A program made the translations under genes and the position numbers. From UHGV virus genome UHGV-0130218: 19,889 bases of DNA. One strand, given 5' to 3'. This document shows, one piece after another, positions 1-13,319 of the stretch (the first letter of the stretch is position 1; every line of letters starts with the position of its first letter). Source of the stretch: a virus. The notes under the pieces are model-generated. The model was not told the DNA's origin. It did no database searches and saw only the letters and a program-made list of their open reading frames with translations.

Positions 1-9
1 GTTGCCGAT

Positions 10-35
10 CTGAGGTCGGTTAAGTCGCTGCGGGT
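10..35. repeat. Direct repeat copy 1 (partner at 1323-1348)
   Basis: Seen in sequence: 10-35 ctgaggtcggttaagtcgctgcgggt versus 1323-1348 ttgaggttggttatgtcgctgcgggc, with a 24-nt core differing at 2 positions. On the minus strand each copy overlaps a stop codon preceded by codons for ...PAAT. Confidence 0.7.
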
Positions 36-49
36 TTGTCTGCCTGTAG

Positions 50-349
50 CTACTTCGAAGAAAGGGCAAGTTTGCGCACAGTCGTCAGGAAATTGAATGG
101 GGTTGAATCCCACAACTCAGGTGAAAAATCAAATCCATACCGGCTTTTGAACTCCTCATCCAGCCTGTCTCCGTAAAGCACAAGGAAAGAATCGACCTCT
201 TCGGCTAACTCTTTTAACATCCAGTCGGGAGCTGTTTTTTTATAGAGTTCAACAGTGCCTTCAATAGTATCCTCTCCCTCATTTATGAGGTCATGATCCT
301 GATTGAAATAACCCTGAATCAGCTGATCAAGATGATAGAAACTTTGCAT
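50..349 (-). CDS. Putative immunity protein of the adjacent toxin-like ORF
   Basis: 99-aa ORF that starts 12 nt downstream of the toxin-like ORF on the same strand. Small, acidic (D/E-rich), no catalytic motif, as is typical of immunity partners of nuclease toxins. Family not assignable by eye. Confidence 0.45.
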   Translation of the reverse strand: MQSFYHLDQLIQGYFNQDHDLINEGEDTIEGTVELYKKTAPDWMLKELAEEVDSFLVLYGDRLDEEFKSRYGFDFSPELWDSTPFNFLTTVRKLALSSK

Positions 350-361
350 AATCCACCTGTC

Positions 362-1207
362 CTATGGGGTCGGGAATGCTGTAAGGATATAGTAAGGTTT
401 TCCGTTATACTCTTGCAATTCGATAACAATCCTCACTCCACGCATGCTGATGCGCTGTGTGCTGCCTCGCGTGAATCCATACCCAACCTCCTGACCGGCA
501 GAATAATTGATGGTAAGGCGTCCACCAATTTTACCACCTCCGAGTAACGATTTGATATTTGCCCGGTTAAGATAGACCGCCCTCGAAATAACATTTTCAG
601 CAACATTTAAGTCTTTAAACGTTGAAGACATAACAAGTCGCTTATTTTTCTCGAATCGGGCAAGTAACTCACTGTCAGTTTTTCCGACATGATTTGCGAG
701 TGTATGGCCGCCGGGTTTAAGACCCGTAACTGATTCATGCTGGATCAATTTGATGCGACCAGCTTTAATTGCAGCTACACGGACGGCACCAATAGCAGCT
801 GCAAATCCAAGCGGAACGGCTATATCAACTGTCATGCCGATATTGAGGGCGGTGTCTTCATCGGCACCAAGTTCTCTTGCCGCGCTTACAGCAATTTGCC
901 AGGTGGCTGAGCGCGTATCACGACCGGTTATTAGCTGTCTGGCTGCGCTTTGAACAGCGTCAAGACTATGTGCACCAACAACCACACATCCCGCTTTCGT
1001 TAGTCCTGTTGGTTCTGGCGCGATACATAGTGCCGTGGCACCGGCCATTTCTACCGCTCCGAGTAAAACGCCAAGTCCCCCCAACAGTCGGTTACTCAGC
1101 GTTTCCGCCTCTGTAATGCTTTTATCTGAAAGCACCGCCGCCAGCTGTACCGGTGACATAACAACGACCATTCCACCTTCTTCCATAACAGTATCCCATC
1201 CCTCCAT
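362..1207 (-). CDS. Putative polymorphic-toxin-like protein (Gly/Ala-rich pre-toxin segment ending in TG plus C-terminal nuclease-like domain)
   Basis: 281-aa ORF. N-terminal part has a Gly/Ala-rich hydrophobic segment (LLGGLGVLLGAVEMAGATALCIAPEPTGL...AARQLITG) resembling pre-toxin TG domains. C-terminal ~130 aa carries GGHTLANHVGK (His-x4-His-x2-Lys), reminiscent of EndoU/RNase-type toxin domains. No secretion or delivery domain is present, and the upstream frame closes 17 codons before the ATG. Confidence 0.5.
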   Translation of the reverse strand: MEGWDTVMEEGGMVVVMSPVQLAAVLSDKSITEAETLSNRLLGGLGVLLGAVEMAGATALCIAPEPTGLTKAGCVVVGAHSLDAVQSAARQLITGRDTRSATWQIAVSAARELGADEDTALNIGMTVDIAVPLGFAAAIGAVRVAAIKAGRIKLIQHESVTGLKPGGHTLANHVGKTDSELLARFEKNKRLVMSSTFKDLNVAENVISRAVYLNRANIKSLLGGGKIGGRLTINYSAGQEVGYGFTRGSTQRISMRGVRIVIELQEYNGKPYYILTAFPTP

Positions 1208-1322
1208 ATCCTGACTCGATAATAGCCAAAACTTTCTTCGGTTGATAAGAGTAAATTACTGGCTTTTCTTATTTATTTGAACTCATCATATTCAGCTGAG
1301 ATAAAAAGACGGCTGTTGCTGG

Positions 1323-1348
1323 TTGAGGTTGGTTATGTCGCTGCGGGC
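1323..1348. repeat. Direct repeat copy 2 (partner at 10-35)
   Basis: See copy 1. This copy overlaps the stop codon of the 63-aa ORF ending ...DEPAAT. Confidence 0.7.
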
Positions 1349-1524
1349 TCGTCGCATGTCGGCAGCCAGTCGTCGTAGCTTTCTTCTTTCAGTGACGGGT
1401 TGGTCTGTATCTCCTGCTTTATGTTCCGCTTCTCATGATTCAGGCCGTACTCTTTCAGCATCATGGGCAGCCCCTGCCCGAACATTTTCAGGCTGAGCAC
1501 CTTTCTGTATCCGTTAGCCTTCAT
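1333..1524 (-). CDS. Hypothetical 63-aa protein whose 3' end is duplicated downstream of the immunity ORF
   Basis: ORF with ATG start ending ...SYDDWLPTCDEPAAT. The last ~45 nt are related with indels to the sequence just past the immunity ORF stop, which encodes LQADKPAAT-stop in frame. No recognisable domain. Confidence 0.25.
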   Translation of the reverse strand: MKANGYRKVLSLKMFGQGLPMMLKEYGLNHEKRNIKQEIQTNPSLKEESYDDWLPTCDEPAAT

Positions 1525-1675
1525 ATGCGTATTCCGATGATTCCGGTGTTTTCGATCGCGCTTTTCGCGCTTTCCTGCTGCGCATTCGCGCTCTCGAAAT
1601 GAAGGGGGAGAGCGCGCCGCAGTCCGCGGCCATCGACGAGCTGCCGATGCGCTAAGTCGTCAGGGCAGCTTCGAT

Positions 1676-1819
1676 ATGAATCAGGAGCCGGTATTGTCCG
1701 TGACGGGTATGCACCGGCCGCAGATTACTGACGTTGATACGGAGCTGTTACGCAGCCCTGCGAAGAGGATGATGCTTGCCAGAAAGCTGGCTGAAAATGG
1801 CGAGACAAAAGCGGAGGAG
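1676..1819 (+). pseudogene. Short ORF abutting ogr/delta, possibly the C-terminal remnant of a truncated upstream late gene (sid-like position)
   Basis: 47-codon frame (MNQEPVLSVTGMHRPQITDVDTELLRSPAKRMMLARKLAENGETKAEE) ending 5 nt before the ogr/delta ATG. The frame is closed upstream at 1655-1657. The sid assignment is by position only. Confidence 0.2.
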
Positions 1820-1824
1820 TAAGC

Positions 1825-2043
1825 ATGTTTCACTGGCCGTTCTGCAAAACCAGCGCGCATTCCCGCACCAGTCGGTATCTGTCCGATAACGTCAAACAGC
1901 GCTATCACCAGTGCATGAACATAGAGTGCTCGGCCACGTTCCGCACGCTTGAATCCATCGACGGGGTTATTCGTTCACCGGCAACAGAGCCGGTCATCCC
2001 TGCACCCGCACCGGCGGCCACCGTTAACCGTGCCGGTGCGTAA
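1825..2043 (+). CDS. ogr: Ogr/Delta-family zinc-finger late-gene transcription activator (P2/P4 type)
   Basis: 72 aa. MFHWPFCKTSAHSRTSRYLSDNVKQRYHQCMNIECSATF matches the Ogr/Delta signature (P2 Ogr as I recall it: MFHCPLC...RTSRY...RYHQCQN.NCSATF). RBS ggagga lies 8 nt upstream. The first Cys ligand position is W (TGG). Confidence 0.85.
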   Translation: MFHWPFCKTSAHSRTSRYLSDNVKQRYHQCMNIECSATFRTLESIDGVIRSPATEPVIPAPAPAATVNRAGA

Positions 2044-2409
2044 GCACGGCCAGTTATCAGGAGAAACATACGTGACCACACTGACGCTACATAAATTATT
2101 CGGCGCAGGATAATGACATTTTAACGGTCATCGGATTCAGGCCTGACGCGGCTTCGCGCGATGATAGTCGTGAAAAATTCACACCCGCACAGAACCTGAA
2201 TTACACACGCCGCCGTGCAGAACTGGCCGTGCAGTAGTCCGCTTAAAAATCCCCGAAAATCCCGCCATTTTTACTTATAAGAGCCATGCATGCATAGGTG
2301 CATGGTTTTGCATGCGTTTTACCGACACTGAATTCCCCGCCAGCGCCAGCACTGGCGCGCTCTGAGGCCGGTCATGCGCCTGCATTAAAAGCGCCCCCTT
2401 AAGCGGGCA

Positions 2410-2428
2410 GGCGTGGCGGGGAGAGCAT
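2410..2428 (+). other. cos-like 19-mer (P2/P4 cohesive-end-like)
   Basis: GGCGTGGCGGGGAGAGCAT matches 16 of 19 positions of the P2/P4 cohesive-end sequence as I recall it (GGCGAGGCGGGGAAAGCAC). It sits where P4 has cos, between the delta/psu late genes and the int-proximal region. Confidence 0.4.
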
Positions 2429-2505
2429 TGCGCGCCAAAAGGCTTGAAAGGAATTCTTCACGGAGGCAATATTAAGATAATATAAACTTAAGTCAGGACG
2501 ATTGT

Positions 2506-2754
2506 ATGTATGATCAGTCTTTCAATCCGCGCACACTCTCACGATGTTTCAAACCTGAGGATTTCCATAAAAATAGAGCATTAAGTCTAGACAGTGTTCG
2601 AGAAAAGACTATTAACTCGGCTATCGAAAGATATAAGGATGGGTTCTTGGGTTATAATTTACGCTCATCCGTTTTAAGAGGGAAAACAGTATATTGGGCC
2701 GATGAGTTAGCTGATGTATTGGTCTTGAGGAAAATTAAAAAAAAATTTATCTAA
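2506..2754 (+). CDS. Reverse transcriptase, N-terminal (fingers) segment; frame ends inside an A9 tract
   Basis: ATG with RBS agga 8 nt upstream. 82 codons encoding ...GYNLRSSVLRGKTVYWADELADVLVLRKIKKK, consistent with RT motifs 1/2. Stops at 2752-2754, just after the A9 run at 2737-2745. Confidence 0.6.
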   Translation: MYDQSFNPRTLSRCFKPEDFHKNRALSLDSVREKTINSAIERYKDGFLGYNLRSSVLRGKTVYWADELADVLVLRKIKKKFI

Positions 2755-2845
2755 GCTATATCAATTAAGATTACCTTCTCGAACAAAGATTGTTGATACA
2801 TTAAAGGTTTTTTTATCAGAGTGTTCACAGTATAAAATATACAGA

Positions 2846-3769
2846 TTGGATATATTTTCATTTTATGAATCTTTCGATAAAAACTATATATTTAATAAAA
2901 TAGATGGATTGGAGCGGTTAGAGCTTAAAACAAAGCAGGTTCTAAAGGAATTTCTTTATTCATTCTATCTGAATGGTGGGCAAGGAATACCAAGAGGATT
3001 GTCAATCAGTGCATACTTGGCAGAGTTACTAATGTATGATTTCGATAATCAAGTGAAAGATAACCACTCTGTTTTTTATTATGCTAGGTATGTAGATGAT
3101 ATAGTTATTGTCACTAGTGGTTACGAAGATAGTGATGCTTTTATTGAGAATGTAAAATCAAACCTTCCAAATGGATTGCGTTTTAATGAAGGGAAGAAAT
3201 ATTATATTAGCGATTTAATTCCAAAATCTTCCAAAAAAACAAACCGTGCACCCTCCAAAAAATTGTTATCCTTTGAATATTTAGGGTACGATTTTAGCGT
3301 GGGAGATAAAATTGAAGAGTGCAATATAAGAGGATTCTATAGGGTAATTGAAATTGATCTTGCACATGCAAAGGCTAATAAAGTAAAAAGTAGAGTGATT
3401 TATTCGATTGTTGATTTTAATAAAACCAATGATTTTGAGTTGCTATGTGAAAGACTAAAATTCCTGTCCACAAACTTTAGTGTTTTAGATTCAGATAGAG
3501 TATTAAAACGGTTGTCGGGCATTCATTTTAATTATCCTCTTATTGATGCTAAATCTTCTAAGCGCCTTGCTGAACTTGATGTGTTTTTAAGAAAGGCTGT
3601 ATTATCATCTAGTGGTAAGGTTTTCTTTGATTTTCATGCGAACTTAAACCAATGCAAAAAATATCGATTACTTAAGATTAGTTTTGTTAGAGGCCATGAG
3701 AAACGTCATTTTTTTCATTATTCAGCTTCAAAAATGATGAAAATTCAAAGGTGTTGGAAATATGTCTAA
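2846..3769 (+). CDS. Reverse transcriptase, palm/thumb segment (the frame is open from 2729, so it is likely continuous with 2506-2754 after a +1 shift)
   Basis: RT motif A YRLDIFSFYESFDKNYIF, motif B QGIPRGLSISAYLAELLMYDFD, motif C YYARYVDDIVIV, motif D/E LRFNEGKKYYIS. No ATG or GTG precedes these motifs in this frame; the ORF track uses TTG at 2846. AT-rich. Confidence 0.8.
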   Translation: MDIFSFYESFDKNYIFNKIDGLERLELKTKQVLKEFLYSFYLNGGQGIPRGLSISAYLAELLMYDFDNQVKDNHSVFYYARYVDDIVIVTSGYEDSDAFIENVKSNLPNGLRFNEGKKYYISDLIPKSSKKTNRAPSKKLLSFEYLGYDFSVGDKIEECNIRGFYRVIEIDLAHAKANKVKSRVIYSIVDFNKTNDFELLCERLKFLSTNFSVLDSDRVLKRLSGIHFNYPLIDAKSSKRLAELDVFLRKAVLSSSGKVFFDFHANLNQCKKYRLLKISFVRGHEKRHFFHYSASKMMKIQRCWKYV

Positions 3770-5714
3770 AAAAAAGGAAGTAAGAGTTAATAAAAAAGAT
3801 TTTAATAGGGTTTTAGTTACTGAAACCATACCCTATGAAACGCCTATAATAGTGTCCAATGATGGTTTTTATAACAATGTAGTTAAATATACAACGGCCA
3901 ATGATACTGCTAAGGTATTGATTCAAAGAATAATTCTAGGGGAAAAGAAGAAAGGTAGGTATACGATTCCCTATGTTTTTAAAATTAATAAAAATGAGAC
4001 GGAGTTTCGACGTTTAGCCTTTCCACACCCCATATCTCAGATTGAAATGCGGGATTTTTATCTCCATTTTAATCAAATGATGATCAATTTTTGTTCCCGT
4101 AGTGATTTTTCTATTCGGCGACCGGTGAAGGTTGCAAGTACATATTATTATAAGAACTTATTGGAAGACAAGAATTTATATAAGAGAGGGCCTGTTGATA
4201 CCGACAAAAATGAACTATTAACTCGGCATGCTTCTTCATATTTTGGCTATCACGGATATGATCGCCTGTATAAGTTCTTTATGTCTAATGAGTTTATTGA
4301 CCTTGAGCGTAAATATAATACGCTATATACATTAGATGTTTCAAAATGTTTCGACAGTATCTATACTCATTCAATTTCTTGGGCTGCAAAAACCAAGACT
4401 TTCATTAAAGGGATGTTAGCTAATAAATCATTAAACTTTGGTGATGCTTTTGATAAATTAATGCAACGTTGCAACTTTAACGAAACCCATGGTGTAATTA
4501 TCGGTCCAGAAATTAGTCGAATATTCGCTGAGGTTATATTTCAAAAAATAGATTTAAATGTTCAGTTTAAATTAAATAATATCGAGCCATCGATACGTAA
4601 GGGTATCGATTATGATATTCGCCGTTATGTTGATGATGTTTTTATTTTTGCTAAAAATGAAACTAATGCCGAAATTATATATAAGATTTACACTGATAAA
4701 CTGAATGAATATAACATGCATATAAATTTGGGTAAAGTAACAAAAAACACTCGACCTTTTATCACAGCAAAAACGCAAATTATACATCACGTCAATCAAA
4801 GAATGAATTTATTTATTGAATCTTTTCTTGGTTATGATGATGAAATGAAATTAATCGCAAAGCCAATATATAACAATAGGAAGTTAGCTAACAAATTTAT
4901 AGATGAGGTGAAAATAATATGTGCTGAAAATAATGCGGGATATGGTGAGGTTGCTTCTTATATTGTGTCGGCGATTTTTGAAAGAATTAAAAGATTAACT
5001 TCTTCAGTTAATCAAGTCGAAGATAAAGATATATACAATGCAATGTATGTTTTGCTCCATATTTCATTGTTCTTTTTCAGAGTTGCTCCGTCTGTTAGTT
5101 CATCATATAAATTGGCTTCAATACTTATCGTGGCTCTCAGATATTTTAAGGCTAAAGTACCATCATACAGTGAGCTTATAGCATCATATGTTTATTTTGA
5201 AATTGAAGACTTTCTTAAATCTGCTAATACTAGCAAAGTAGCCATAGATAATCTAATTAGTCTTGAGGCATATAATATTATGTATGTTATAGGTGAGCTA
5301 GATCAAGAACGATATTTATCAAAACAGTTGATTGAGAACATTTTTAGTGAAGTTGATTCTTATTTTGATATAGTGTCCTGTCTATATATCGTAAAGGATA
5401 AGAAAGTTTATAATACACTTAAAAATAAAATTATTGATATTATTAACTCCAAGTTAATGTCAAGTGATAGTATTTTGGATTATAGTGAAAAGGCAATGCT
5501 CTTTTTGGATGTTATGTCTTGCCCTTATATTGATTTAAAATGGAAAAAAATATGGTTGAAATCAACTTTAAAAGAATTGCAAGAAGCTACTCCTAACAAT
5601 GAAAAAATAGATAGTTTTATCAGTTATTCTGTAGCGAATCCTTGGTTTGTGGACTGGAGTAATGTCGATCTTTTGAATTTCTTAGAAAAAAAACAATTGA
5701 AAAAAGCCTATTGA
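3762..5714 (+). CDS. Reverse transcriptase with long alpha-helical C-terminal extension (UG/Abi-type, defence-associated RT-like)
   Basis: 650 aa. Motif A YTLDVSKCFDSIYTHSI, motif B HGVIIGPEISRIFAEVIF, motif C RRYVDDVFIFAKN, followed by ~300 aa of predicted helical sequence. Its ATG overlaps the upstream RT stop by 8 nt, indicating translational coupling. AT-rich. Confidence 0.85.
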   Translation: MSKKKEVRVNKKDFNRVLVTETIPYETPIIVSNDGFYNNVVKYTTANDTAKVLIQRIILGEKKKGRYTIPYVFKINKNETEFRRLAFPHPISQIEMRDFYLHFNQMMINFCSRSDFSIRRPVKVASTYYYKNLLEDKNLYKRGPVDTDKNELLTRHASSYFGYHGYDRLYKFFMSNEFIDLERKYNTLYTLDVSKCFDSIYTHSISWAAKTKTFIKGMLANKSLNFGDAFDKLMQRCNFNETHGVIIGPEISRIFAEVIFQKIDLNVQFKLNNIEPSIRKGIDYDIRRYVDDVFIFAKNETNAEIIYKIYTDKLNEYNMHINLGKVTKNTRPFITAKTQIIHHVNQRMNLFIESFLGYDDEMKLIAKPIYNNRKLANKFIDEVKIICAENNAGYGEVASYIVSAIFERIKRLTSSVNQVEDKDIYNAMYVLLHISLFFFRVAPSVSSSYKLASILIVALRYFKAKVPSYSELIASYVYFEIEDFLKSANTSKVAIDNLISLEAYNIMYVIGELDQERYLSKQLIENIFSEVDSYFDIVSCLYIVKDKKVYNTLKNKIIDIINSKLMSSDSILDYSEKAMLFLDVMSCPYIDLKWKKIWLKSTLKELQEATPNNEKIDSFISYSVANPWFVDWSNVDLLNFLEKKQLKKAY

Positions 5715-5880
5715 ATTGCTAATTTGTTGTTGAAGCAACCAATATGCCCTACACGATTTTTCGATATACTAGGGCTGATTACGGTAGGTAAGTTGCATGT
5801 AACCTGGCCTACCTTATGACGCTCAAGAGCAGAAATGCACACACTAAGGGATGAGGTTGCTTCAACCCCTTTTATTTTCT
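5715..5880 (+). ncRNA. Candidate structured non-coding RNA downstream of the RT operon
   Basis: 5729-5740 GTTGAAGCAACC and 5855-5866 GGTTGCTTCAAC are perfect reverse complements (12 bp), enclosing ~115 nt with internal stems such as 5784-5789 GGTAGG / 5808-5813 CCTACC. A T-rich tail follows. No ORF. Confidence 0.35.
5848..5880 (+). terminator. Putative intrinsic terminator for the RT operon
   Basis: Stem GGTTG-CTT-CAACC at 5855-5867 followed by CCTTTTATTTTCT. The int stop codon (5862-5864 on the minus strand) lies in the loop. Confidence 0.4.
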
Positions 5881-7058
5881 ACAAAATTCCCCCACCACAG
5901 CATCAGCTCTACTCTTTGTTGCAAATAGACAGAGCGGTTGTATGCTCTTCGTACCTCATTCTTATCAGAATGAGCTAGTGCTGCTTCAATGACGTCTGGA
6001 TTAAATCCTTCTTCATTAAGCGTCGTGCTAGCTATCGAGCGTAAGCCATGAGCAACTAGCTTCCCATTCCAGCCAACTCTTTTTAGTGCAGCATTAGCCG
6101 TCTGGCTATTCATAGCTTTCTTAGGGTCATTTCTACTTGGAAAAACATGATCACGGTGCTTACTGATGGGTGCCATGATCTCAAGAATATAAAGCGCCTG
6201 AGGAGATAGAGGAATTAAATGTTCACGCTTCGCTTTCATCCTTTCGGCGGGGATTGTCCAGAGTTTTGAGTCGAGATCGATCTCTTCCCACCTGGTACCG
6301 GAGGCTTCAGAAGGGCGTACAAGGGTTAGGAGTTGCCACTCAATTAGACAGCGAGTAGGAACAGACAGATTTGACATAACCAAAGAACGCATCAGACTTG
6401 GTAATTCTTCTGGTCTAAGCGTAGGCATATTTTGCTTTTTAGGCCTCTCAAAAGCCATTCCAACTCCTGAGGTTGGGTTTGCGTCAATCAAGCCGGTATT
6501 TACCGCGTAAATCATAATCTCATTAATACGCTGTACCAGACGACGAACAGTCTCCAGAGCACCACGCGCTTTGATTGGCTCTAATGCTTCAACAATTGTT
6601 CTGGCCTTAATCTCCTGAACAGGTATCGTGCCTATTGCAGGGAAAACGTCCTTGTCTAAAGATCGCCAAATATCTTTTGCATAGTCTTCGGTGACGCTTT
6701 TGCTCTTCATTTTGAACCAGTTGGTGGCCACAGTTGAGAAAATGCTATCCAGCTCTATCTGACGCTTTTCTGATGCATGCTCTTGTTGCTGTTGTGGATC
6801 CATATCTAGCGCGAGCATGGTTAAGTGCTGGTCGCGTATCTGACGAGCTGCTGCGAGTGTAAAGGCAGGGTATGAGCCGAGACTCAAATTTGTGCGGCTG
6901 CTGCTTCCCGGTCGTTGATAACGGAAGCGCCAGAGTTTTTTGCCGGAGGTTTTTACGAGTAAGAACAGGCCATCACCATCATGCAGGGTGAAGTCTTTTT
7001 CGCGGGGTTTTGCTTTGAGGATTTCGTTGTTAGTGAGGGGGCGTGTAATGCGCGCCAT
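5862..7058 (-). CDS. int: P4-type tyrosine integrase
   Basis: 398 aa. N-terminus LTNNEILKAKPREKDFTLHDGDGLFLLVKTSGKKLWRFRYQRPG is typical of P4-family integrase arm-binding domains. The C-terminal catalytic region has HGLRS...LAHSDKNEVRRAYNRSVYL (R, H-x-x-R, Y). RBS aggga upstream. It is adjacent to a tmRNA 3' fragment, as with CP4-57 intA. Confidence 0.9.
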   Translation of the reverse strand: MARITRPLTNNEILKAKPREKDFTLHDGDGLFLLVKTSGKKLWRFRYQRPGSSSRTNLSLGSYPAFTLAAARQIRDQHLTMLALDMDPQQQQEHASEKRQIELDSIFSTVATNWFKMKSKSVTEDYAKDIWRSLDKDVFPAIGTIPVQEIKARTIVEALEPIKARGALETVRRLVQRINEIMIYAVNTGLIDANPTSGVGMAFERPKKQNMPTLRPEELPSLMRSLVMSNLSVPTRCLIEWQLLTLVRPSEASGTRWEEIDLDSKLWTIPAERMKAKREHLIPLSPQALYILEIMAPISKHRDHVFPSRNDPKKAMNSQTANAALKRVGWNGKLVAHGLRSIASTTLNEEGFNPDVIEAALAHSDKNEVRRAYNRSVYLQQRVELMLWWGNFVENKRG

Positions 7059-7079
7059 GTCTGGATCCCTTCCATAATT

Positions 7080-7127
7080 GGTACACGTTTAATGGACCAC
7101 AGTATAGCGTGTACCTAAACGTGTACC
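7080..7127. promoter_or_regulatory. Cluster of three 8-mer repeats (CGTGTACC) upstream of int; candidate integrase/regulator binding sites
   Basis: GGTACACG at 7080-7087 (inverted) and CGTGTACC at 7108-7115 and 7120-7127, between the int start and the att core. Confidence 0.3.
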
Positions 7128-7171
7128 TATTTTCTCTGGATTTAACCGGATGTTCTCGGACAACGCCAGAC

Positions 7172-7210
7172 ACAAAAAAGCCCGCAGGGCTTGCGCCGTG
7201 CGGGCTTTCA
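7172..7210 (-). terminator. Intrinsic terminator downstream of the tmRNA 3' fragment (minus strand)
   Basis: Minus-strand reading: GCCCGCA-(12-nt loop)-TGCGGGC followed by TTTTTTGTG (plus coordinates 7205-7172). Confidence 0.5.
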
Positions 7211-7262
7211 GGACTTCATCGGATGACTCTGGTAATCACCGATGGAACATTTTGGTGGAGCT

Positions 7263-7300
7263 GGCGGGAGTTGAACCCGCATCCGTAACCAGCTATCTCA
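7263..7300 (-). other. ssrA: tmRNA (ssrA) 3'-terminal fragment serving as att core (not a complete gene)
   Basis: Reverse complement of 7263-7290 is GCGGGTTCAACTCCCGCCAGCTCCACCA, which matches the T-arm, acceptor 3' strand and CCA end of enterobacterial tmRNA. Sequence beyond 7300 is AT-rich coding DNA with no tag-peptide region. Confidence 0.7.
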
Positions 7301-7311
7301 TTGAAAAATAA

Positions 7312-8172
7312 TCAAATAAATTTGTTTTTCCATGTCTCGTATCTTTTACGTATCCTTTGAAGTAGTAATGCCGTCCAGCTAAGGCCGTGAGAGAATGTTA
7401 GATTAAAAGTTGCTTCCACTGTATCTCCACGTATTGAGAATCTATTTATCCGATATTCAGTAGAAAAAAACTCTTTTTTTGTTGTTCCAGAGATTTCTTC
7501 ATATTCAATTAATAAAACAGGCCCATCTATTTGAGTTAACATATTTTCATGGAGGCTGATTTTATCCAAGAGGTAGTTAGATAATAGTGTCGGTATTAAT
7601 GTGGGGATGTGAAGATTTACCTCTTCTTTGTTAACGCTCCAAGGGAGAATATAAACAACATCAGAATATTGTTCTTCATGAGAATACCATTTGGATTGAC
7701 CAAAACCTAATAATGAAATGTAAGTGTGACCTTGTTTGTCTAATTGATAACAGTATTCATTAGCCATCATGGCTGCTTTGTAACCTTTGGTGTCAAAGGT
7801 ATGTTCATCGTCTAGTTTTTTTATTTTATTTAACAAAAAATGTTTTTCGTAATTGAATATCCATTGGTATTTGAATTTCAACGCTGGGCCTAGACCAACA
7901 TTTAATATTGGCAGGGTGGGATTGTTGTTTTTTGATATAGCATCAAAAACACCTTTGTTTACTATTTTTGTTTTATCAATTTTTATTTTTACATCTTTAG
8001 TGATTATCTGTACTTTGTTTGATAACTTTCTTTGGATAACAGTTTGCCTTATAGCTAAATAAGCAGCAATTGCTGATAAAGCACTTGCTGTCAAACCACC
8101 ATATCCGAGCCATGCGGGGTCTGCCATATCGAAGTATTCCTGCCTTATAACAAGGCAGGAATTATTTCTCAA
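7312..8172 (-). CDS. Hypothetical membrane-anchored protein; AT-rich moron between the lambdoid int and the att core
   Basis: 286-codon ORF with a TTG start; a more likely ATG start at 8127 gives MADPAWLGYGGLTASALSAIAAYLAI, a predicted N-terminal transmembrane helix. The ~240-aa soluble domain has no motif I recognise. Strongly AT-rich compared with the neighbouring int. Confidence 0.6.
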   Translation of the reverse strand: MRNNSCLVIRQEYFDMADPAWLGYGGLTASALSAIAAYLAIRQTVIQRKLSNKVQIITKDVKIKIDKTKIVNKGVFDAISKNNNPTLPILNVGLGPALKFKYQWIFNYEKHFLLNKIKKLDDEHTFDTKGYKAAMMANEYCYQLDKQGHTYISLLGFGQSKWYSHEEQYSDVVYILPWSVNKEEVNLHIPTLIPTLLSNYLLDKISLHENMLTQIDGPVLLIEYEEISGTTKKEFFSTEYRINRFSIRGDTVEATFNLTFSHGLSWTALLLQRIRKRYETWKNKFI

Positions 8173-9344
8173 TTCTTCACATTGTTCAAGGATGTGATCG
8201 ATGAGTTGTTATCATAATCTTTCAAATAGCGTCCGTAATGACGAAAGAGCATCTCAGGTCCTTTGTGGCCCATCTGCGCAGCCAGCCAAAATAAGTTTAC
8301 ACCGCAGCTTATCATACGTGTGGCGAATGTATGCCTTGTCTGATAAGGATTACGGTACCTGATACCGGCTTTCCGGAGCGTAGGAACCCAGGCTTTTTTC
8401 CTAATGGCGTCCGCGCTGGCCCATGGCTTGTTTGTCTTCGGATCTTCAAAGACACAACCATTCTTCATGAAGCTAAAGGGCTTTTGTTCGTTTAGAGCAA
8501 TCATCGCTTCCTCGGTTAACTCAACCTTGCGTGTTCCTGCCTTCGTTTTCGTACCTTTCGTCACGCCAGAGACGCTGGCGCTCTGTACATGAGCCGTCTT
8601 CTCAACGAAGTCAATGTCCCTCCAGCGTAGTGCGCAAAGTTCCGAACTGCGTAGACCTGTCTGAAGCGCAAATCTGAATAAGTTCTCCCATTGCTTATTA
8701 CCCGCTGATTTTAACAGCGCGCTTACCTCTGCTGGAGATAGTGGATCAACAATATAAGTACTTTCCTCGTCACTTTTTTTGCTTTGATATCGTGAAGCTG
8801 TTACCTGTGACACTGGATTAATTTGTAAAACACCATCAGTTACAGCTTCATCAAGTGAGGAACGAAGAAACGACAACTGGTTACGTATCGTCTTCAATGT
8901 TGTTTTCTGATTCTGAATCCATGTTTTTAATGCTGCTGGCGTTAACTCACTGGCCGGGAAAATGTGAAGTTCAGACAGTGCGCTACGGCATTTTTTATAC
9001 CCGCCAATGGTGGAGGGGGAAAGATTCCTCGTTTCGCAAATCTTCAGGTACTCATCAAGATACATTTTCACTGTTTTCCCGGTCGCAGCATTACCGAAAA
9101 TTTTTAACCTCACCGAACGAGGGAAATATTCAGCATAGATAAATGTTCCACGCTCGATTTTGTTGTGGATTTCGCCGAGCATACGCTCGGCATATTTAAG
9201 GTTTTTGTTGTTCACTTCTAGATTTGAAAGGGGTTCTCTGCATTTCACCCCCTTGTATGTGAACGTAATATTGATGGTTTCACCACTGCTGTGCTTCCTG
9301 ATGGTTACACCACGTGGGAGTTTAGGCGATTCTTTCGTGCCCAT
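8169..9344 (-). CDS. int: Phage tyrosine integrase (lambdoid type)
   Basis: 391 aa. C-terminal catalytic region RNPYQTRHTFATRMISCGVNLFWLAAQMGHKGPEMLFRHYGRYL (R...H-x-x-R...Y). Its start overlaps the xis-like ORF. Confidence 0.9.
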   Translation of the reverse strand: MGTKESPKLPRGVTIRKHSSGETINITFTYKGVKCREPLSNLEVNNKNLKYAERMLGEIHNKIERGTFIYAEYFPRSVRLKIFGNAATGKTVKMYLDEYLKICETRNLSPSTIGGYKKCRSALSELHIFPASELTPAALKTWIQNQKTTLKTIRNQLSFLRSSLDEAVTDGVLQINPVSQVTASRYQSKKSDEESTYIVDPLSPAEVSALLKSAGNKQWENLFRFALQTGLRSSELCALRWRDIDFVEKTAHVQSASVSGVTKGTKTKAGTRKVELTEEAMIALNEQKPFSFMKNGCVFEDPKTNKPWASADAIRKKAWVPTLRKAGIRYRNPYQTRHTFATRMISCGVNLFWLAAQMGHKGPEMLFRHYGRYLKDYDNNSSITSLNNVKN

Positions 9345-9523
9345 TTTGCAACCTCACTAAGATCTATCCATCTCTCCTTAACGCCTTCAACCTTAAGCAC
9401 CTGCACCCCTTCACGCCAAACGCCGCGCTGTACACGCTTATTGATCGCATCTGGGGTTTCGCCAGTCTCTTTGCAATAAGTTGAGATGGGAACACAATCG
9501 AGGCTCAGCATATACTTCTCCAT
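9305..9523 (-). CDS. xis: Excisionase-like small DNA-binding protein
   Basis: 72 aa, basic. Overlaps the int start by 40 nt, the classic xis-int arrangement. Confidence 0.6.
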   Translation of the reverse strand: MEKYMLSLDCVPISTYCKETGETPDAINKRVQRGVWREGVQVLKVEGVKERWIDLSEVAKWARKNRLNSHVV

Positions 9524-9545
9524 TAACTCGGCTGCACCCGAGTAA

Positions 9546-10118
9546 TTAAAACTTGTCGCTGTTGGTAGGGATCAGTTTCTGCCAAATTGCTGACAAATAT
9601 TTTGCCTGGTGTCGCGCATCAGCTAGGGCATTGTGCACATCGCCAATAAAAGGCATGTCACGCTTCGGATCGAAACCGACACTGCGACCAAGCGTAACAA
9701 TAGTGCGCACATCGTGATCGTTCCAAAAGCCCCAAGGGCATATGCGGCCGGCGCGTTCGTAAGCTCCACGCAGAATCACATTGTCAAAGGTGGCACCGTT
9801 ACCCCAGACCTTCATGTATTTTGGATTATCTGCGTGCCGGTGAATGAAATGGCTCAGTTCCGACAGTGCATCAGTGATAGGCAGCGCATCATCAACACAA
9901 ATAGCTGAGCGCGCTTCCGAGCTTTGTTTGAGCCACCAAAGAATAGTATCTCCGTCCGGTACCGCACCCTGATCCATTGCGCTTTCAAGCGAGATGGCCG
10001 TATAGAATTCTTGACCAAGTTCACCTGTATGAGGGTTAAAAAAGACGGCACCAATTGACACGATCGGCGCGTTTGGCTTTTTTCCCATCGATTCGAGGTC
10101 AATCATTAAGTCGTTCAA
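9546..10118 (-). CDS. DnaQ-like (DEDDh) 3'-5' exonuclease
   Basis: 190 aa. N-terminal Exo I motif MIDLESMG, and a C-terminal His/Asp motif HNALADARHQ. Confidence 0.65.
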   Translation of the reverse strand: MNDLMIDLESMGKKPNAPIVSIGAVFFNPHTGELGQEFYTAISLESAMDQGAVPDGDTILWWLKQSSEARSAICVDDALPITDALSELSHFIHRHADNPKYMKVWGNGATFDNVILRGAYERAGRICPWGFWNDHDVRTIVTLGRSVGFDPKRDMPFIGDVHNALADARHQAKYLSAIWQKLIPTNSDKF

Positions 10119-10402
10119 TTGCTTTCTCCATTGTTCTTGGCTTCTGATTCACTGTGGGGGCTGTAGCGCGAGTCGGCGTTGTCGCTAACGTGGCAATAAT
10201 GAGCCCCGTCAGGACGAGTACAAATTGTCCCGCACCTATCACATGCCAATATTGCTTCCAGCTCCGCGATCCGCTCCTCTGCTTTTGACAACTGCTCGAG
10301 AAGTTCTTCTGCTAACGTCACACGCATCACGACTTTCTGACAGTCGTGGCGCTTGGCTCTGGCGATTGTGCCGCGCAGACTCGCATAATTGTTGGGGGTC
10401 AT
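10115..10402 (-). CDS. Hypothetical phage early protein (Cys-containing, coiled-coil)
   Basis: 95-aa ORF overlapping its downstream neighbour by 4 nt, indicating an operon. No assignable domain. Confidence 0.5.
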   Translation of the reverse strand: MTPNNYASLRGTIARAKRHDCQKVVMRVTLAEELLEQLSKAEERIAELEAILACDRCGTICTRPDGAHYCHVSDNADSRYSPHSESEAKNNGESN

Positions 10403-10596
10403 TGGACGGACTCCTGACGAAGATGGTTAATTTCGGCGTCAAGGCTCATTCGCTGGTCCATCGATTCCGTCAAGGCGGCAAATGTAACGTCCAGGCGAGT
10501 GGCTACCTCACGCATCAGAGAAGCTTCTGCTGGTGACAGTTTCTCCGCCGCAGCATGGGCTGCGGCTACCAGTTCTTTTATCTTCATGCGAGGCAT
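10399..10596 (-). CDS. Hypothetical small phage early protein
   Basis: 65-aa ORF in the same operon, overlapping both neighbours. Helical, charged. Confidence 0.45.
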   Translation of the reverse strand: MPRMKIKELVAAAHAAAEKLSPAEASLMREVATRLDVTFAALTESMDQRMSLDAEINHLRQESVQ

Positions 10597-11123
10597 GCGC
10601 GTGATTCCGTAAGCTCATTGAAACGGTTAATGAACAAGCCATATGCTTGGCCTGGACGAAGAGGGACGATCTGGATAATGTCGCTGGCCGGTATACCTTC
10701 AAGACAAGGCCAGAGTGAGCCGTCGTCGATATCCAGATCGCGGCGTTCAGTGGCAAGCATCACCAGATCGGCGTATTTCACTACCGCTGACATATCAGGG
10801 GTGATGCTGAATTTGGCCCGGATCAGCTGTTCTACCCGCTCTTCAATGCGACGATAATCTGGAAGCAATGCCTTTAGGGGGGCAGGTATGTCTTGGCAAT
10901 AGGCTTCAGCTGCATCATGCATCAGGGCTTCAAAGGCAAACTCTGGCGGCACAATTTGGCTGCACAGTACCGAGTGCTGGGCCACGCTGTAAAATTCCGG
11001 CAGATGACCACTGAAGCGGCAGATGTGGGAAAGTGCGGTCGCAATATCCTCGAGCTCTACATCGTCAGCGGTTGAATTAAGGTAATTGAATTTCTTACCT
11101 GAAAGTGTCTGGATATAACTCAT
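10584..11123 (-). CDS. HD-domain phosphohydrolase (YfdR-like prophage protein)
   Basis: 179 aa. HD signature ...SVAQHSVLCS...ALMHDAAEAY. Size and neighbourhood match the CPS-53 yfdP-yfdQ-yfdR arrangement. Confidence 0.75.
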   Translation of the reverse strand: MSYIQTLSGKKFNYLNSTADDVELEDIATALSHICRFSGHLPEFYSVAQHSVLCSQIVPPEFAFEALMHDAAEAYCQDIPAPLKALLPDYRRIEERVEQLIRAKFSITPDMSAVVKYADLVMLATERRDLDIDDGSLWPCLEGIPASDIIQIVPLRPGQAYGLFINRFNELTESRACLA

Positions 11124-11257
11124 CGTCTTTTCTTCTCCATATTTGGCAGCTGCACCTGCGCTAGTTTTGGTTGTACGAATCCCTCGCCTTTGGCGATTAA
11201 TAAAGGGAATTGCGCTTCAATAAATCCCCGCGGCGCCGGGGATTTAATGCAGAGAAA

Positions 11258-12088
11258 TTACGCTTTAAAGTTACCGATAAAGGTTTCTACTGGCTCGCCG
11301 TCGAATTTGCTGATTAGCAGATCTCGGAATTCATTGGCGATCGCTTCTTCCTGCGCTTCCAGCTGAACAATACGCAGAACAAAGCGTGGTTCGTCACCTG
11401 TGAGTAGACTATTGCGAAGGCTGAATGCTCGCTCACCAAGACCTTCATACGGCACGCATTTGAACTCGAACGCTACCGGCATTACATCTTTGCTGCTGGC
11501 CTCAACGCTCTGCATTAGTGATTTTTTCCCGCTGAAATCACCGTCTTCATGATCCTGCTGAGTCGCCTGCTGGATAGTGATGCGACGAACAGCCTGAGCA
11601 GCCTGTGAAATCTGCATGGTATTTCCTTCAGCATCAAAGGCCAGCAGGTAATCACTCCAGTCTTCCAGCCATTCGGCGATCTGCTTTTGCTTCAGTCGGT
11701 CACCGTTAATCGCCAGCAGCGCGCGGAAAGGTGCAGTCTGTTTCAGGGTGATTGCAGCAACGTTATCAGCATGGCCTGGGTTTTCCAGCGTGCCGATATT
11801 GAACACGGAGCGTGCTGTCATATTGTCCGCATCGATAAAGCAGCGAGCCGGCTCTTCGACACTGGCATACCCTTTAGAATAACGGGCGAAATCATTGATG
11901 CTGGTCGTGGTCATGGCGCCACGGAAGCGGAAGCGCTCCAGTGAAAAATTTTCCAGGCTCGCTACCTTTGTATTTTCCGGCAAAATAGCTGTTGGACAGG
12001 CGAGTCCGTTAATATCATTCAGGTGATAGCCGGAGAGAACCAGGTCTTTAACCTGTTTGATGGCGCTGCTGTCTAGTTGCTGAGACAT
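11258..12088 (-). CDS. YfdQ-like prophage protein (DUF2303-type)
   Basis: 276 aa. Called from size and position between the YfdP-like and YfdR-like genes. No catalytic motif recognised. Confidence 0.6.
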   Translation of the reverse strand: MSQQLDSSAIKQVKDLVLSGYHLNDINGLACPTAILPENTKVASLENFSLERFRFRGAMTTTSINDFARYSKGYASVEEPARCFIDADNMTARSVFNIGTLENPGHADNVAAITLKQTAPFRALLAINGDRLKQKQIAEWLEDWSDYLLAFDAEGNTMQISQAAQAVRRITIQQATQQDHEDGDFSGKKSLMQSVEASSKDVMPVAFEFKCVPYEGLGERAFSLRNSLLTGDEPRFVLRIVQLEAQEEAIANEFRDLLISKFDGEPVETFIGNFKA

Positions 12089-12144
12089 AAAAATTCCTTA
12101 TCTGCTAATGATCGAAGTGGTTGCAGTGAATTGGTTGAGGCGGT

Positions 12145-12516
12145 TCACTGAGCCGCTTTAAGCTTTCCGTCAACGCCGCCGTTGATGCCGAACAACTGTC
12201 CCTGATCTTCTTGGAGGATGGTCAGCTTGCCGCCTTTGTTAACCCACATTGGTGTTTCGGTGGTGTCTTCTTCGGAGGCTTTACCGCGCGGGGTAGGGGT
12301 TACGTAGTTCAGCTTGTGCTTGATCTTGACGCGCTTCTCTTCGACGGAGTTACCCATACGCTCAATATCAAAGGTGAGGACTACTTTGCCTTTGGTACCG
12401 TTGTTCAGAACGCCAAGCGCGGTAGTGTTTAAAGCTGCCGCGATCTTGTTCATGAACACGCCGGCATCCAGTTCGCCCAGGAAATCGGGCACTACGGTCA
12501 TGCGGTCATTACTCAT
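12145..12516 (-). CDS. YfdP-like prophage protein
   Basis: 123 aa, first sizeable ORF of the leftward early operon. Assignment is by synteny and size only. Confidence 0.5.
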   Translation of the reverse strand: MSNDRMTVVPDFLGELDAGVFMNKIAAALNTTALGVLNNGTKGKVVLTFDIERMGNSVEEKRVKIKHKLNYVTPTPRGKASEEDTTETPMWVNKGGKLTILQEDQGQLFGINGGVDGKLKAAQ

Positions 12517-13267
12517 GGTTTAACCCTCTGTGAGGCGGCTGCCACCGCCAGTGGAACTTCTCCATACACAACAGAAAAGGGCACCTGCGTAGCAGTGAAG
12601 ATTGCAGCCTCCATTTCTGCGCCCGGGTGGATTGGGGAATGAGCCCGTCGCCCGGTGATGCCCTTGTCTCTTGTGTAAAAAAGGTGCCCACCGATGTGAT
12701 GGGCAAAGACTACTCACAGCAATGATTTTGTTGTGGCGGTGGTGCCTCCACCTGCCGGACCGGCCAGAACCGGCGACGCTACACCTCAAGAAACGTATTC
12801 ATTTCAAATGTTGAAATAAAAACTTGTTGGCCTCGTCACGTGCGCAGAGCCGCATTACCACAACTGGAAGCGCACTCCGCCAGGTAACAAACCGATCCCC
12901 ATCAGTAAGAAGAGGAGTGCGCTTTCATGTTGTGTTGTGTTGGTCGGTGCTGATCTCCGGCTTTCGGGATGGTTTTGCCATTGCCCCGCGCGGGTTAATA
13001 GTCCGCTGCACATCAGCCTGTGCATTCACCACAACGGTGAGGGCACTGTTTATCTGCTTTACCGATTCGCGTCTCACGCAGTCCGATAATCAGCAATGCT
13101 CTCGCCTGTTGTGCCCTTAAAAAGCTGGCTGTCACCCTCAAGGGGAAAGTGAGCAGCCAGAACAGGGATCACTTCTTATTGCTTTGGCCTGCTTTTAACC
13201 ACATCAGGCGCGGTGGTTCTGCTTAACAACCGCGAAAGTAATAGTGGGTACCAATCGCGTGATTTAA

Positions 13268-13319
13268 ATGTACCTTTAGTTACTTTTTCGGTCAAGCGAG
13301 GAATGTACTTTTTGTTACC
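13268..13319. promoter_or_regulatory. OL-like operator region (two copies of the ATGTACYTTTWGTTAC motif)
   Basis: 13268-13283 atgtacctttagttac and 13303-13318 atgtactttttgttac, immediately 3' of the repressor gene. The same motif recurs at 14078-14093 in the cI-cro intergenic region. Confidence 0.45.

Follow-up and report, generated by a model that had tools for sequence, protein, structure and literature searches.

What kind of system lies between the cos region and the integrase gene of the satellite-derived DNA in the virus genome record UHGV-0130218, and is this copy likely to work? The window, that is, the whole 19,889-nucleotide (nt) stretch of DNA analyzed, carries at this position two reverse transcriptase (RT) genes, drt3a and drt3b, and a noncoding RNA (ncRNA). 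A first-pass annotation, made from the letters alone, had described the interval as two translationally coupled RTs with a structured RNA on a P4-like satellite. We consider it very probable that the locus is a defense-associated reverse transcriptase (DRT) type 3 cassette whose drt3a gene is frameshifted, and so inactive or strongly attenuated, and that it lies in a decayed remnant of a P4-like satellite.

The reverse transcriptases of a DRT3 cassette

By its sequence, the segment 2506–5866 is a DRT type 3 (DRT3) anti-phage cassette composed of drt3a (UG3), drt3b (UG8) and a downstream ncRNA. Its parts are the following:

2444–2486, + strand: putative promoter, TTGAAA and AATATT separated by 18 nt (a weak match from a consensus scan, where the AT-rich cargo begins close behind cos)
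2506–3769, + strand: drt3a, encoding a UG3 (Class 2 UG/Abi) RT, split by a +1 frameshift (reading frames, PADLOC, PDB, exact database protein)
2737–2745, + strand: run of nine A (A9), site of the frameshift
3762–5714, + strand: drt3b, intact, encoding a 650-residue UG8 (Class 1 UG/Abi) RT with an alpha-Rep C-terminal domain (PADLOC, PDB 9z6y_H and 26cz_A)
5729–5866, + strand: core of the DRT3 ncRNA (fold, inverted repeats, covariation)
5855–5880, + strand: putative terminator that closes the cassette, made up of the 3′ arm of helix P1 and then CCCCUUUUAUUUU

The open reading frames (ORFs) on the + strand of this interval are 2506–2754 (82 amino acids, aa), 2846–3769 (307 aa, from a TTG start) and 3762–5714 (650 aa). 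The translations contain two RT-encoding frames with the palm motifs quoted in the first-pass annotation. Its comparison of the locus with type 3 systems (UG3, UG8 and ncRNA) is borne out by profile searches with PADLOC. Drt3a, repaired by the removal of one A, matches model PDLC02175 with an E value of 3e-144 over profile positions 1–416 of 417, and Drt3b matches PDLC02176 with an E value of 2e-223 over positions 2–651 of 651. The runner-up families are weaker by more than 100 orders of magnitude for both proteins (UG17, 3e-26, and Drt9, 2e-17, for repaired Drt3a; Drt6, 7e-42, and AbiK, AbiP2 and Drt4, ~1e-28 to 1e-30, for Drt3b), and retron-type RT models reach only ~1e-9 to 1e-11 with the window proteins. 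In structural databases, repaired Drt3a matches PDB 9z6y_A (E = 6e-239) and Drt3b matches a chain of 9z6y/9z6z (E = 0); these chains are titled 'Drt3a/Drt3b reverse transcriptase protein'.

RVT_1 is the sole Pfam domain in both proteins. As had been stated at first pass, no maturase, endonuclease or effector domain is found by Pfam in either RT protein, and the ORFs and Pfam matches at the locus include no effector gene of a retron. That the locus is some other retroelement, be it a retron, a group II intron, a diversity-generating retroelement, a single RT of the AbiK, Abi-P2 or DRT4 kind, or an undescribed two-RT system, has practically no probability. Such an assignment could appeal to the secondary matches (retron-type at ~1e-10, AbiK, AbiP2 and Drt4 at ~1e-28 to 1e-30) and to the fact that no Rfam model recognizes the RNA. 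However, the DRT3 models fit better by at least 100 orders of magnitude and over the full length, the two proteins share 85% and 91% identity with their counterparts in Escherichia coli GF3-3, which are tied to solved DRT3 chains by their first 102 residues, and the family-specific ACACAC ncRNA is present, whereas maturase, endonuclease and effector domains and any intron or retron RNA in Rfam are missing. A retron was ruled out by the level of the RT matches (~1e-9 to 1e-11), the lack of a retron RNA in Rfam and the lack of an effector gene, and a group II intron by the presence of RVT_1 alone and the lack of a group II intron match in Rfam. The PADLOC matches, the 9z6y/9z6z chains and the ACACAC ncRNA refute the earlier reservation, in which the two RTs could also have formed a divergent or undescribed system.

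The order drt3a–drt3b–ncRNA on one strand is that of the RefSeq-annotated E. coli locus. The 8-nt overlap of the two genes noted at first pass is read at 3762–3769 as ATGTCTAA, and the same overlap is found in the E. coli locus. The genes form an AT-rich island, also as described before, with a GC fraction of ~0.27–0.35 over 2600–5800 and of ~0.45–0.58 in the flanks. Upstream of drt3a, the region 2440–2505 is conserved with E. coli GF3-3.

The cassette type is already known: DRT3 was identified as a defense system in 2020, its ncRNA and the CACACA motif were described in 2022, and its mechanism and structures followed in 2026. Nothing here is new in kind, and the cassette is already annotated in RefSeq. 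The discovery value of the locus is small, as these exact proteins already bear the names Drt3a and Drt3b at NCBI. Public databases list the exact Drt3b (270 contigs) and the exact repaired Drt3a (279 contigs) under the name 'MULTISPECIES: antiviral reverse transcriptase Drt3b/Drt3a [Enterobacter cloacae complex]', which points to an Enterobacter of the cloacae complex, mostly E. hormaechei, as the host.

Drt3b is intact. PDB 9z6y_H aligns over its residues 1–650, and its long, helical C-terminal half, which the first-pass annotation had pointed out, corresponds to the published alpha-Rep domain. Mapping through 26cz_A equates E26 with E22, R83 with R71, D192, V193 and F197 with D182, I183 and F187, R253 with R241, Y289VDD with Y276VDD (D291/D292; D278 in 26cz), and Y650 with Y666. 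The glutamate gate, the arginine switch, the stacking arginine and the catalytic aspartates are all kept in the window Drt3b, and E26, R83, D192, V193, F197, R253, the YVDD motif and Y650 do not vary among 16 homologues with identities as low as 41%. The protein ends in Y650, which by its mapping to Y666 is the candidate priming tyrosine. As judged by these alignments, every Drt3b residue published as essential is present in the window copy.

In the published system, Drt3a and the ncRNA repeatedly copy a looped ACACAC template into poly(dT-dG), while Drt3b, a hexameric RT with an alpha-Rep domain, produces poly(dC-dA) without RNA or any nucleic acid template, primed from its own C-terminal Y666; E22, the dA gate, and R241, the dC switch, enforce the alternation beside the active site, and the two products anneal to double-stranded DNA (PMC13174585). 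Intact RT active sites of both Drt3a and Drt3b are required for defense (Wang et al., PMC13174585). Cells with a knockout of recB, recC or recD cannot maintain DRT3, the mutations of lambda escapers lie in gam, and expression of Gam triggers growth arrest (PMC13174585). As summarized in a review (PMC13314766), Deng et al. 2026 describe a complex of Drt3a, Drt3b and ncRNA in the ratio 6:6:6 and a poly(GT/AC) duplex of kilobase scale. In the published account of the family, the RecBCD of the host normally removes this duplex, and a phage inhibitor of RecBCD, such as lambda Gam, lets it build up and leads to abortive growth arrest. Repeat-DNA synthesis and phage protection by DRT3 have been shown for E. 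coli homologues only.

The downstream noncoding RNA

The noncoding region after drt3b, described at first pass as bracketed by inverted repeats, is indeed enclosed by a perfect 12-bp repeat, and is resolved into these elements:

5729–5740 and 5855–5866, + strand: P1, the 12-bp closing helix, a perfect inverted repeat that brackets the noncoding region
5743–5745 and 5747–5750 with 5847–5853, + strand: P2, the inner helix (fold and covariation)
5780–5788 and 5808–5816, + strand: internal stem-loop GGUAGG/CCUACC (single-sequence fold)
5829–5838, + strand: small hairpin GCA-GAAA-UGC just 5′ of the template (fold)
5839–5844, + strand: 5′-ACACAC-3′, the Drt3a template, single-stranded between the 5829–5838 hairpin and the 3′ strand of P2 (minimum free energy fold, literature)

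The minimum free energy of the region is −46.3 kcal/mol (z = −3.1), and no shuffle folds as well. An unpaired ACACACUA comes after the 5829–5838 hairpin and holds the ACACAC. This agrees with the structured DRT3 ncRNA and its ACACAC/CACACA template in the literature (PMC13174585). The ncRNA is 96% identical between the window and E. coli GF3-3, compared with 87% for the whole locus. Rfam 15, searched with the whole window at gathering thresholds, gave no match, and it holds no model of the DRT3 ncRNA.

For a wider comparison, 80 diverse drt3b loci were taken from species-representative genomes. ACACAC occurs at most 260 nt downstream of the drt3b stop in 60 of the 66 loci examined, against a chance expectation of ~6%. 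Of the six loci that lack it, two have truncated flanks. The distance from the stop differs between subgroups. In distant drt3b homologues (L061–L088, 28–32% identity) the motif follows after ~27–50 nt, and in the closer subgroup after ~105–190 nt (234 in one locus). The short distance in the distant subgroup suggests that the ncRNA there has another layout and carries its template close to the 5′ end.

Covariation was assessed in an alignment of eight ncRNAs of the window subgroup, from Enterobacter, E. coli, Photorhabdus, two Pseudomonas, Arhodomonas, a Desulfobacterium metagenome-assembled genome (MAG) and an alphaproteobacterial MAG. In P1 and P2, 90.8% of the cells are paired, versus 39–51% when the partner strand is slid by one to three columns. 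Compensatory changes are seen in 12 of the 19 P1/P2 pairs, and the observed covariation score was reached by none of 500 shuffles. A covariance model was built from the eight ncRNAs with P1 and P2 only, since the variable internal stem-loops could not be aligned by MAFFT. Among 83 sources it recovered the eight seeds and one weak match and did not reach other subgroups of DRT3 ncRNA.

At the end of the cassette, the 3′ arm of P1 can fold on itself into a small terminator-like hairpin, GGUUG-CUU-CAACC. The same arm overlaps the stop codon of the convergent integrase gene at 5862–5864. With CCCCUUUUAUUUU following directly, the arrangement suggests that the integrase gene and the DRT3 transcript share their ends.

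The drt3a reading frame and its A8 and A9 alleles

The N-terminal part of drt3a is a stub of 82 aa in frame 1 (2506–2754) that ends in '...LRKIKKKFI*' with a TAA stop at 2752–2754. The RT domain is encoded in frame 2, open between 2729 and the stop at 3767–3769. Deletion of one A from the A9 run at 2737–2745 joins the frames into a 420-aa protein with YVDD at residues 195–198, identical to the 'MULTISPECIES Drt3a, Enterobacter cloacae complex' entry (279 contigs). Intact alleles have eight A (A8) at this site, and E. coli GF3-3 has GTTCAAAGTAA, with no run. The first ATG, GTG or TTG of frame 2 is the TTG at 2846, already within motif A (R-L-D-I-F); the stretch of this frame between 2729 and 2846 holds the motif YRLDIFSFYESF reported by the earlier reader. 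An intact drt3a ORF, needed for function though not for homology, is replaced in the window by the stub and an out-of-frame RT domain. The translational coupling claimed at first pass holds for the intact allele but not for the window, where drt3a is split at A9, a break that went unnoticed; the locus is in this respect a worked example of a sequence-only reading that recognizes DRT3 yet misses a one-base frameshift.

Two ways around the break were considered and rejected. An in-frame restart of the RT domain has no ATG, GTG or TTG available before the TTG at 2846, inside motif A. A conserved programmed frameshift is at odds with the lack of the run in E. coli GF3-3 and with the in-frame A8 of most alleles; the absence of a run at the GF3-3 position indicates that the A tract is no conserved recoding signal. 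Because defense needs a catalytically active Drt3a and frame 2 offers no start before motif A, the A9 copy is most likely inactive or strongly attenuated. Drt3b alone might still produce protein-linked poly(dC-dA) in such a copy, and its expression may fall through the loss of translational coupling to drt3a.

The A9 allele is not confined to the window. The exact Drt3b is found in seven near-identical loci (99.8–100% identity over window positions 1–7285), five with A8 and an intact 420-aa drt3a (L003, L004, L006, L007 and L009) and two with A9 like the window (L005 and L008). The 82-aa stub occurs on 27 contigs, compared with 279 for the intact Drt3a, and in 41 collection blocks, compared with 459 for Drt3b, or ~9% of occurrences. 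Among the assemblies that contain it are SPAdes contigs at 44x coverage, MEGAHIT contigs and short-read runs assembled by Logan, so that A9 is no long-read artifact. Furthermore, a single-nucleotide polymorphism, 209G, is common to four A9 loci (L008 and L091–L093) and occurs in none of the five A8 loci read, indicating that the allele is inherited. These data bear on the view that the extra A is a homopolymer error of sequencing or assembly and that the strain really has an intact, ordinary DRT3. Long-read assemblies often err in the length of a homopolymer, L005 and L008, both with A9, are complete genomes, and the window differs here from the intact loci by little beyond one base. Nevertheless, the recovery of A9 in 41 collection blocks, the short-read assemblies among them, and its descent together with 209G render such an error highly improbable.

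A contig of 61.8 kb (L090, ENA ERZ8157675) contains a second DRT3 lineage, 97.7% identical, with the same A9 in drt3a. Its left flank differs, with YceI and a partial Psu, and its Drt3a has an intact Drt3a of the E. coli type as its nearest match (415 of 420 residues), suggesting that the A9 of this lineage arose by a second, independent slip. The integrase of the contig is likewise called in two pieces, of 125 and 182 aa. Other short alleles (protein cluster members P0135, P0139 and P0143), for which contig ends are excluded as the cause, are found in E. hormaechei: a Drt3a of 347 aa (on a 224-kb contig) and Drt3b proteins of 517 aa (in a complete genome) and 231 aa (on nine contigs). Together they suggest that DRT3 decays repeatedly in this species.

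Several points weigh against an inactive or attenuated DRT3 cassette as the full account of the locus. In E. coli, runs of at least nine A or T allow slippage of RNA polymerase or the ribosome that restores the frame in some products, and the A9 copy may be leaky rather than dead. The covariance model is limited to its own subfamily, so the internal helices of the ncRNA are drawn from single-sequence folding only. The promoter scan yields 19 sites versus 17.3 expected, which is not enriched over shuffles and is uninformative. Lastly, the literature (PMC13314766) gives no settled account of the DRT3 killing step.

Slippage could take the form of a polymerase slip, with one A lost in the mRNA, or of a +1 slip at tRNA-Lys, in which case the A9 allele would still work, maybe as a down-tuned DRT3. 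The run is nine A long and the shift needed is a single base. The allele persists at ~9% of occurrences, next to an unaltered drt3b and ncRNA and with no other change in drt3a, it is also present in the 97.7% identical lineage, and a lower dosage could be tolerated or favored, given that DRT3 is toxic once RecBCD is lost. On the other hand, with no run in GF3-3 and A8 in most alleles, the tract is no programmed recoding site; a recent mutation would likewise leave the locus free of other decay, and the truncated drt3a and drt3b alleles (347, 517 and 231 aa) of the same species fit ongoing loss. On balance, we regard a working A9 allele as unlikely. A heritable on/off or dosage switch, with the A8/A9 tract as a contingency locus, appears distinctly improbable. 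The background to such a scheme is that DRT3 is constitutively active, and lethal once RecBCD is lost. Slipped-strand gain of one A would silence Drt3a, slippage on A9 would leave a low level, cells could tune or shed DRT3, and a return to A8 would restore it. The occurrence of A9 in two lineages 2.3% apart and its frequency of ~9% are compatible with a switch, and equally with ordinary recurrent loss.

If A9 is the inactive or attenuated allele that we favor, it would be a natural loss-of-function or leaky drt3a that, together with the otherwise identical A8 allele, forms a pair for studying what DRT3 costs the cell and what Drt3b does by itself.

The satellite remnant and the place of the cassette among known systems

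The carrier is, by synteny and domain content, a deleted, non-mobile remnant of a P4-like satellite at ssrA in the Enterobacter cloacae complex (E. hormaechei). The following parts are recognized:

1303–2240: what remains of the satellite backbone (synteny to the intact satellites L001 and L002; Pfam Pox_D5 and Ogr_Delta)
1333–1524, − strand: last 63 codons of the alpha primase (Pfam Pox_D5, synteny)
~1564–1824: 3′ fragment of sid, ~260 bp (synteny)
1825–2043: delta, an Ogr/Delta zinc finger, intact (Pfam Ogr_Delta)
~2072–2237: psu, with an internal deletion of ~394 bp near 2093 (synteny)
2282–2458: cos region of the P4-like element (alignment to the ends of P2-like phage records)
5862–7058, − strand: P4-type tyrosine integrase, 398 aa, intact (Pfam Arm-DNA-bind_3, Phage_int_M and Phage_integrase)
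7253–7288, − strand: 36-nt copy of the 3′ end of ssrA (transfer-messenger RNA, tmRNA), attachment site and right boundary of the element (alignment to L001)

From the core set of P4-like elements, int, cos and delta are present, primase, sid and psu are reduced, and the region from icd to the regulator is absent. Compared with intact satellites, window position 1526 is joined to 1563, and the ~4.5 kb lost in between took in most of the primase and reached halfway into sid. The description of the carrier as a P4-like satellite is correct as to its origin, but not as to an intact element. The 19-nt GGCGTGGCGGGGAGAGCAT at 2411–2429 appears to resemble the cohesive end of P2 and P4. To its left, window positions 2091–2408 align to the right end of P4 (X51522, positions 11305–11623 of 11624). 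The AT-rich DRT3 cargo begins right after cos and ends at the integrase gene, so that the cos–int position proposed at first pass stands, with P4- and P2-like alignments upstream and the integrase downstream. The window from 2091 to 7288 aligns to positions 7792–12978 of the intact satellite L001, where ssrA lies at 12943–13305. ARAGORN detected no tRNA or tmRNA in the window.

The defense cassette has outlived its P4-like carrier as a fixed chromosomal island beside ssrA in E. hormaechei. The locus is of mild interest, and only for the natural A8/A9 polymorphism and for the survival of the cassette in a decayed satellite.

In the window and the near-identical loci L003–L009, the 3′ end of ssrA is a hotspot of tandem integration. 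To the right of the DRT3 island, sister genomes have smpB directly, a 186/Fels-2-like prophage of the P2 family, or other integrase-bearing islands. In the window, a second element follows position 7288, with an integrase (8169–9344) and a lambdoid early region that encodes a cI-like repressor as well as Dam, Dcm and Ant. An ORF of 286 aa at 7312–8172 (− strand, GC ~0.32) overlaps with its start the stop of this prophage integrase by 4 nt. It has no Pfam or PADLOC match and is similar to phrog_7259, of unknown function, only (E = 2e-42). Its site is the junction between int and the attachment site, where prophages often carry accessory or defense genes. The prophage integrase is also adjoined by a gene for an Rv2179c-like 3′–5′ exoribonuclease of 190 aa (9546–10118, − strand; E = 3e-72), which has a weak DEDDh match in PADLOC. 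Directly to the left of the satellite remnant, at 50–1207 (− strand), lie an orphan CdiA-CT protein of the RNase A-like type (281 aa, PF18431) and then a CdiI_2 immunity protein (99 aa), with no full-length cdiA in the window.

The closest known system is the E. coli DRT3 of PDB 9z6y/9z6z, a Drt3a–Drt3b–ncRNA complex (Deng et al. 2026, as summarized in PMC13314766). The same allele type is found in the complete genome of E. coli GF3-3 (NZ_CP053259), whose locus is labeled drt3a/drt3b in RefSeq, is 87% identical to the window locus in DNA, and encodes a Drt3a and a Drt3b with 85% and 91% identity to the window proteins. The first 102 residues of its Drt3a and Drt3b equal the PDB 9z6y/9z6z chains. 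The same three parts are found there in the same order, flanked by cos/psu and int in a P4-like element at ssrA, and the GF3-3/9z6y Drt3b likewise has 650 aa and ends in ...KKAY, with the priming tyrosine. In contrast to the window, GF3-3 retains only the inner 6 bp of the 12-bp P1, has an intact satellite (primase, icd, sid, delta and psu) in place of a remnant, and has no homopolymer at the position of the A9 frameshift.

EcoDRT3 (Wang, Sternberg and colleagues, PMC13174585; PDB 26cz, DRT3b of 667 aa) shares with the window Drt3b the RT-like domain, the alpha-Rep domain and the C-terminal tail, with E22, R71, D182, F187, R241, YVDD and Y666 all conserved, as well as an ACACAC template in a loop beside a stem-loop. 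Its sequence, however, is distant (phmmer E = 3e-93, with gaps in the alpha-Rep region), and its ncRNA probably belongs to another subgroup than that of the window.

Among other UG RTs, DRT9 and DRT10 (Class 2 enzymes with an ncRNA) resemble Drt3a in that a short stretch limited to a loop of the ncRNA serves them as template for repeat DNA. They differ from DRT3 in having a single RT, in their products (poly-dA or tandem repeats) and in their partners (SLATT for DRT10). AbiK, Abi-P2, DRT4 and DRT6 (Class 1) are comparable to Drt3b: they are protein-primed, use no nucleic acid template, have an alpha-Rep C-terminal domain and form hexamers. In contrast to DRT3, they act alone and give random or other products.

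A defense hotspot between psu/cos and int has already been described in P4-like satellites, and systems of UG3 and UG8 are among the RT systems listed for it (Rousset et al. 2022, PMC9122126; Mestre et al. 2022, PMC9226505). As in the other systems of this hotspot, the cargo in the window directly follows cos and precedes int. The window carrier differs from other hotspot carriers by the loss of the primase, most of sid and most of psu, and it fits the described class of defective P4 elements with conserved defense genes (bioRxiv 10.64898/2026.02.27.708500).

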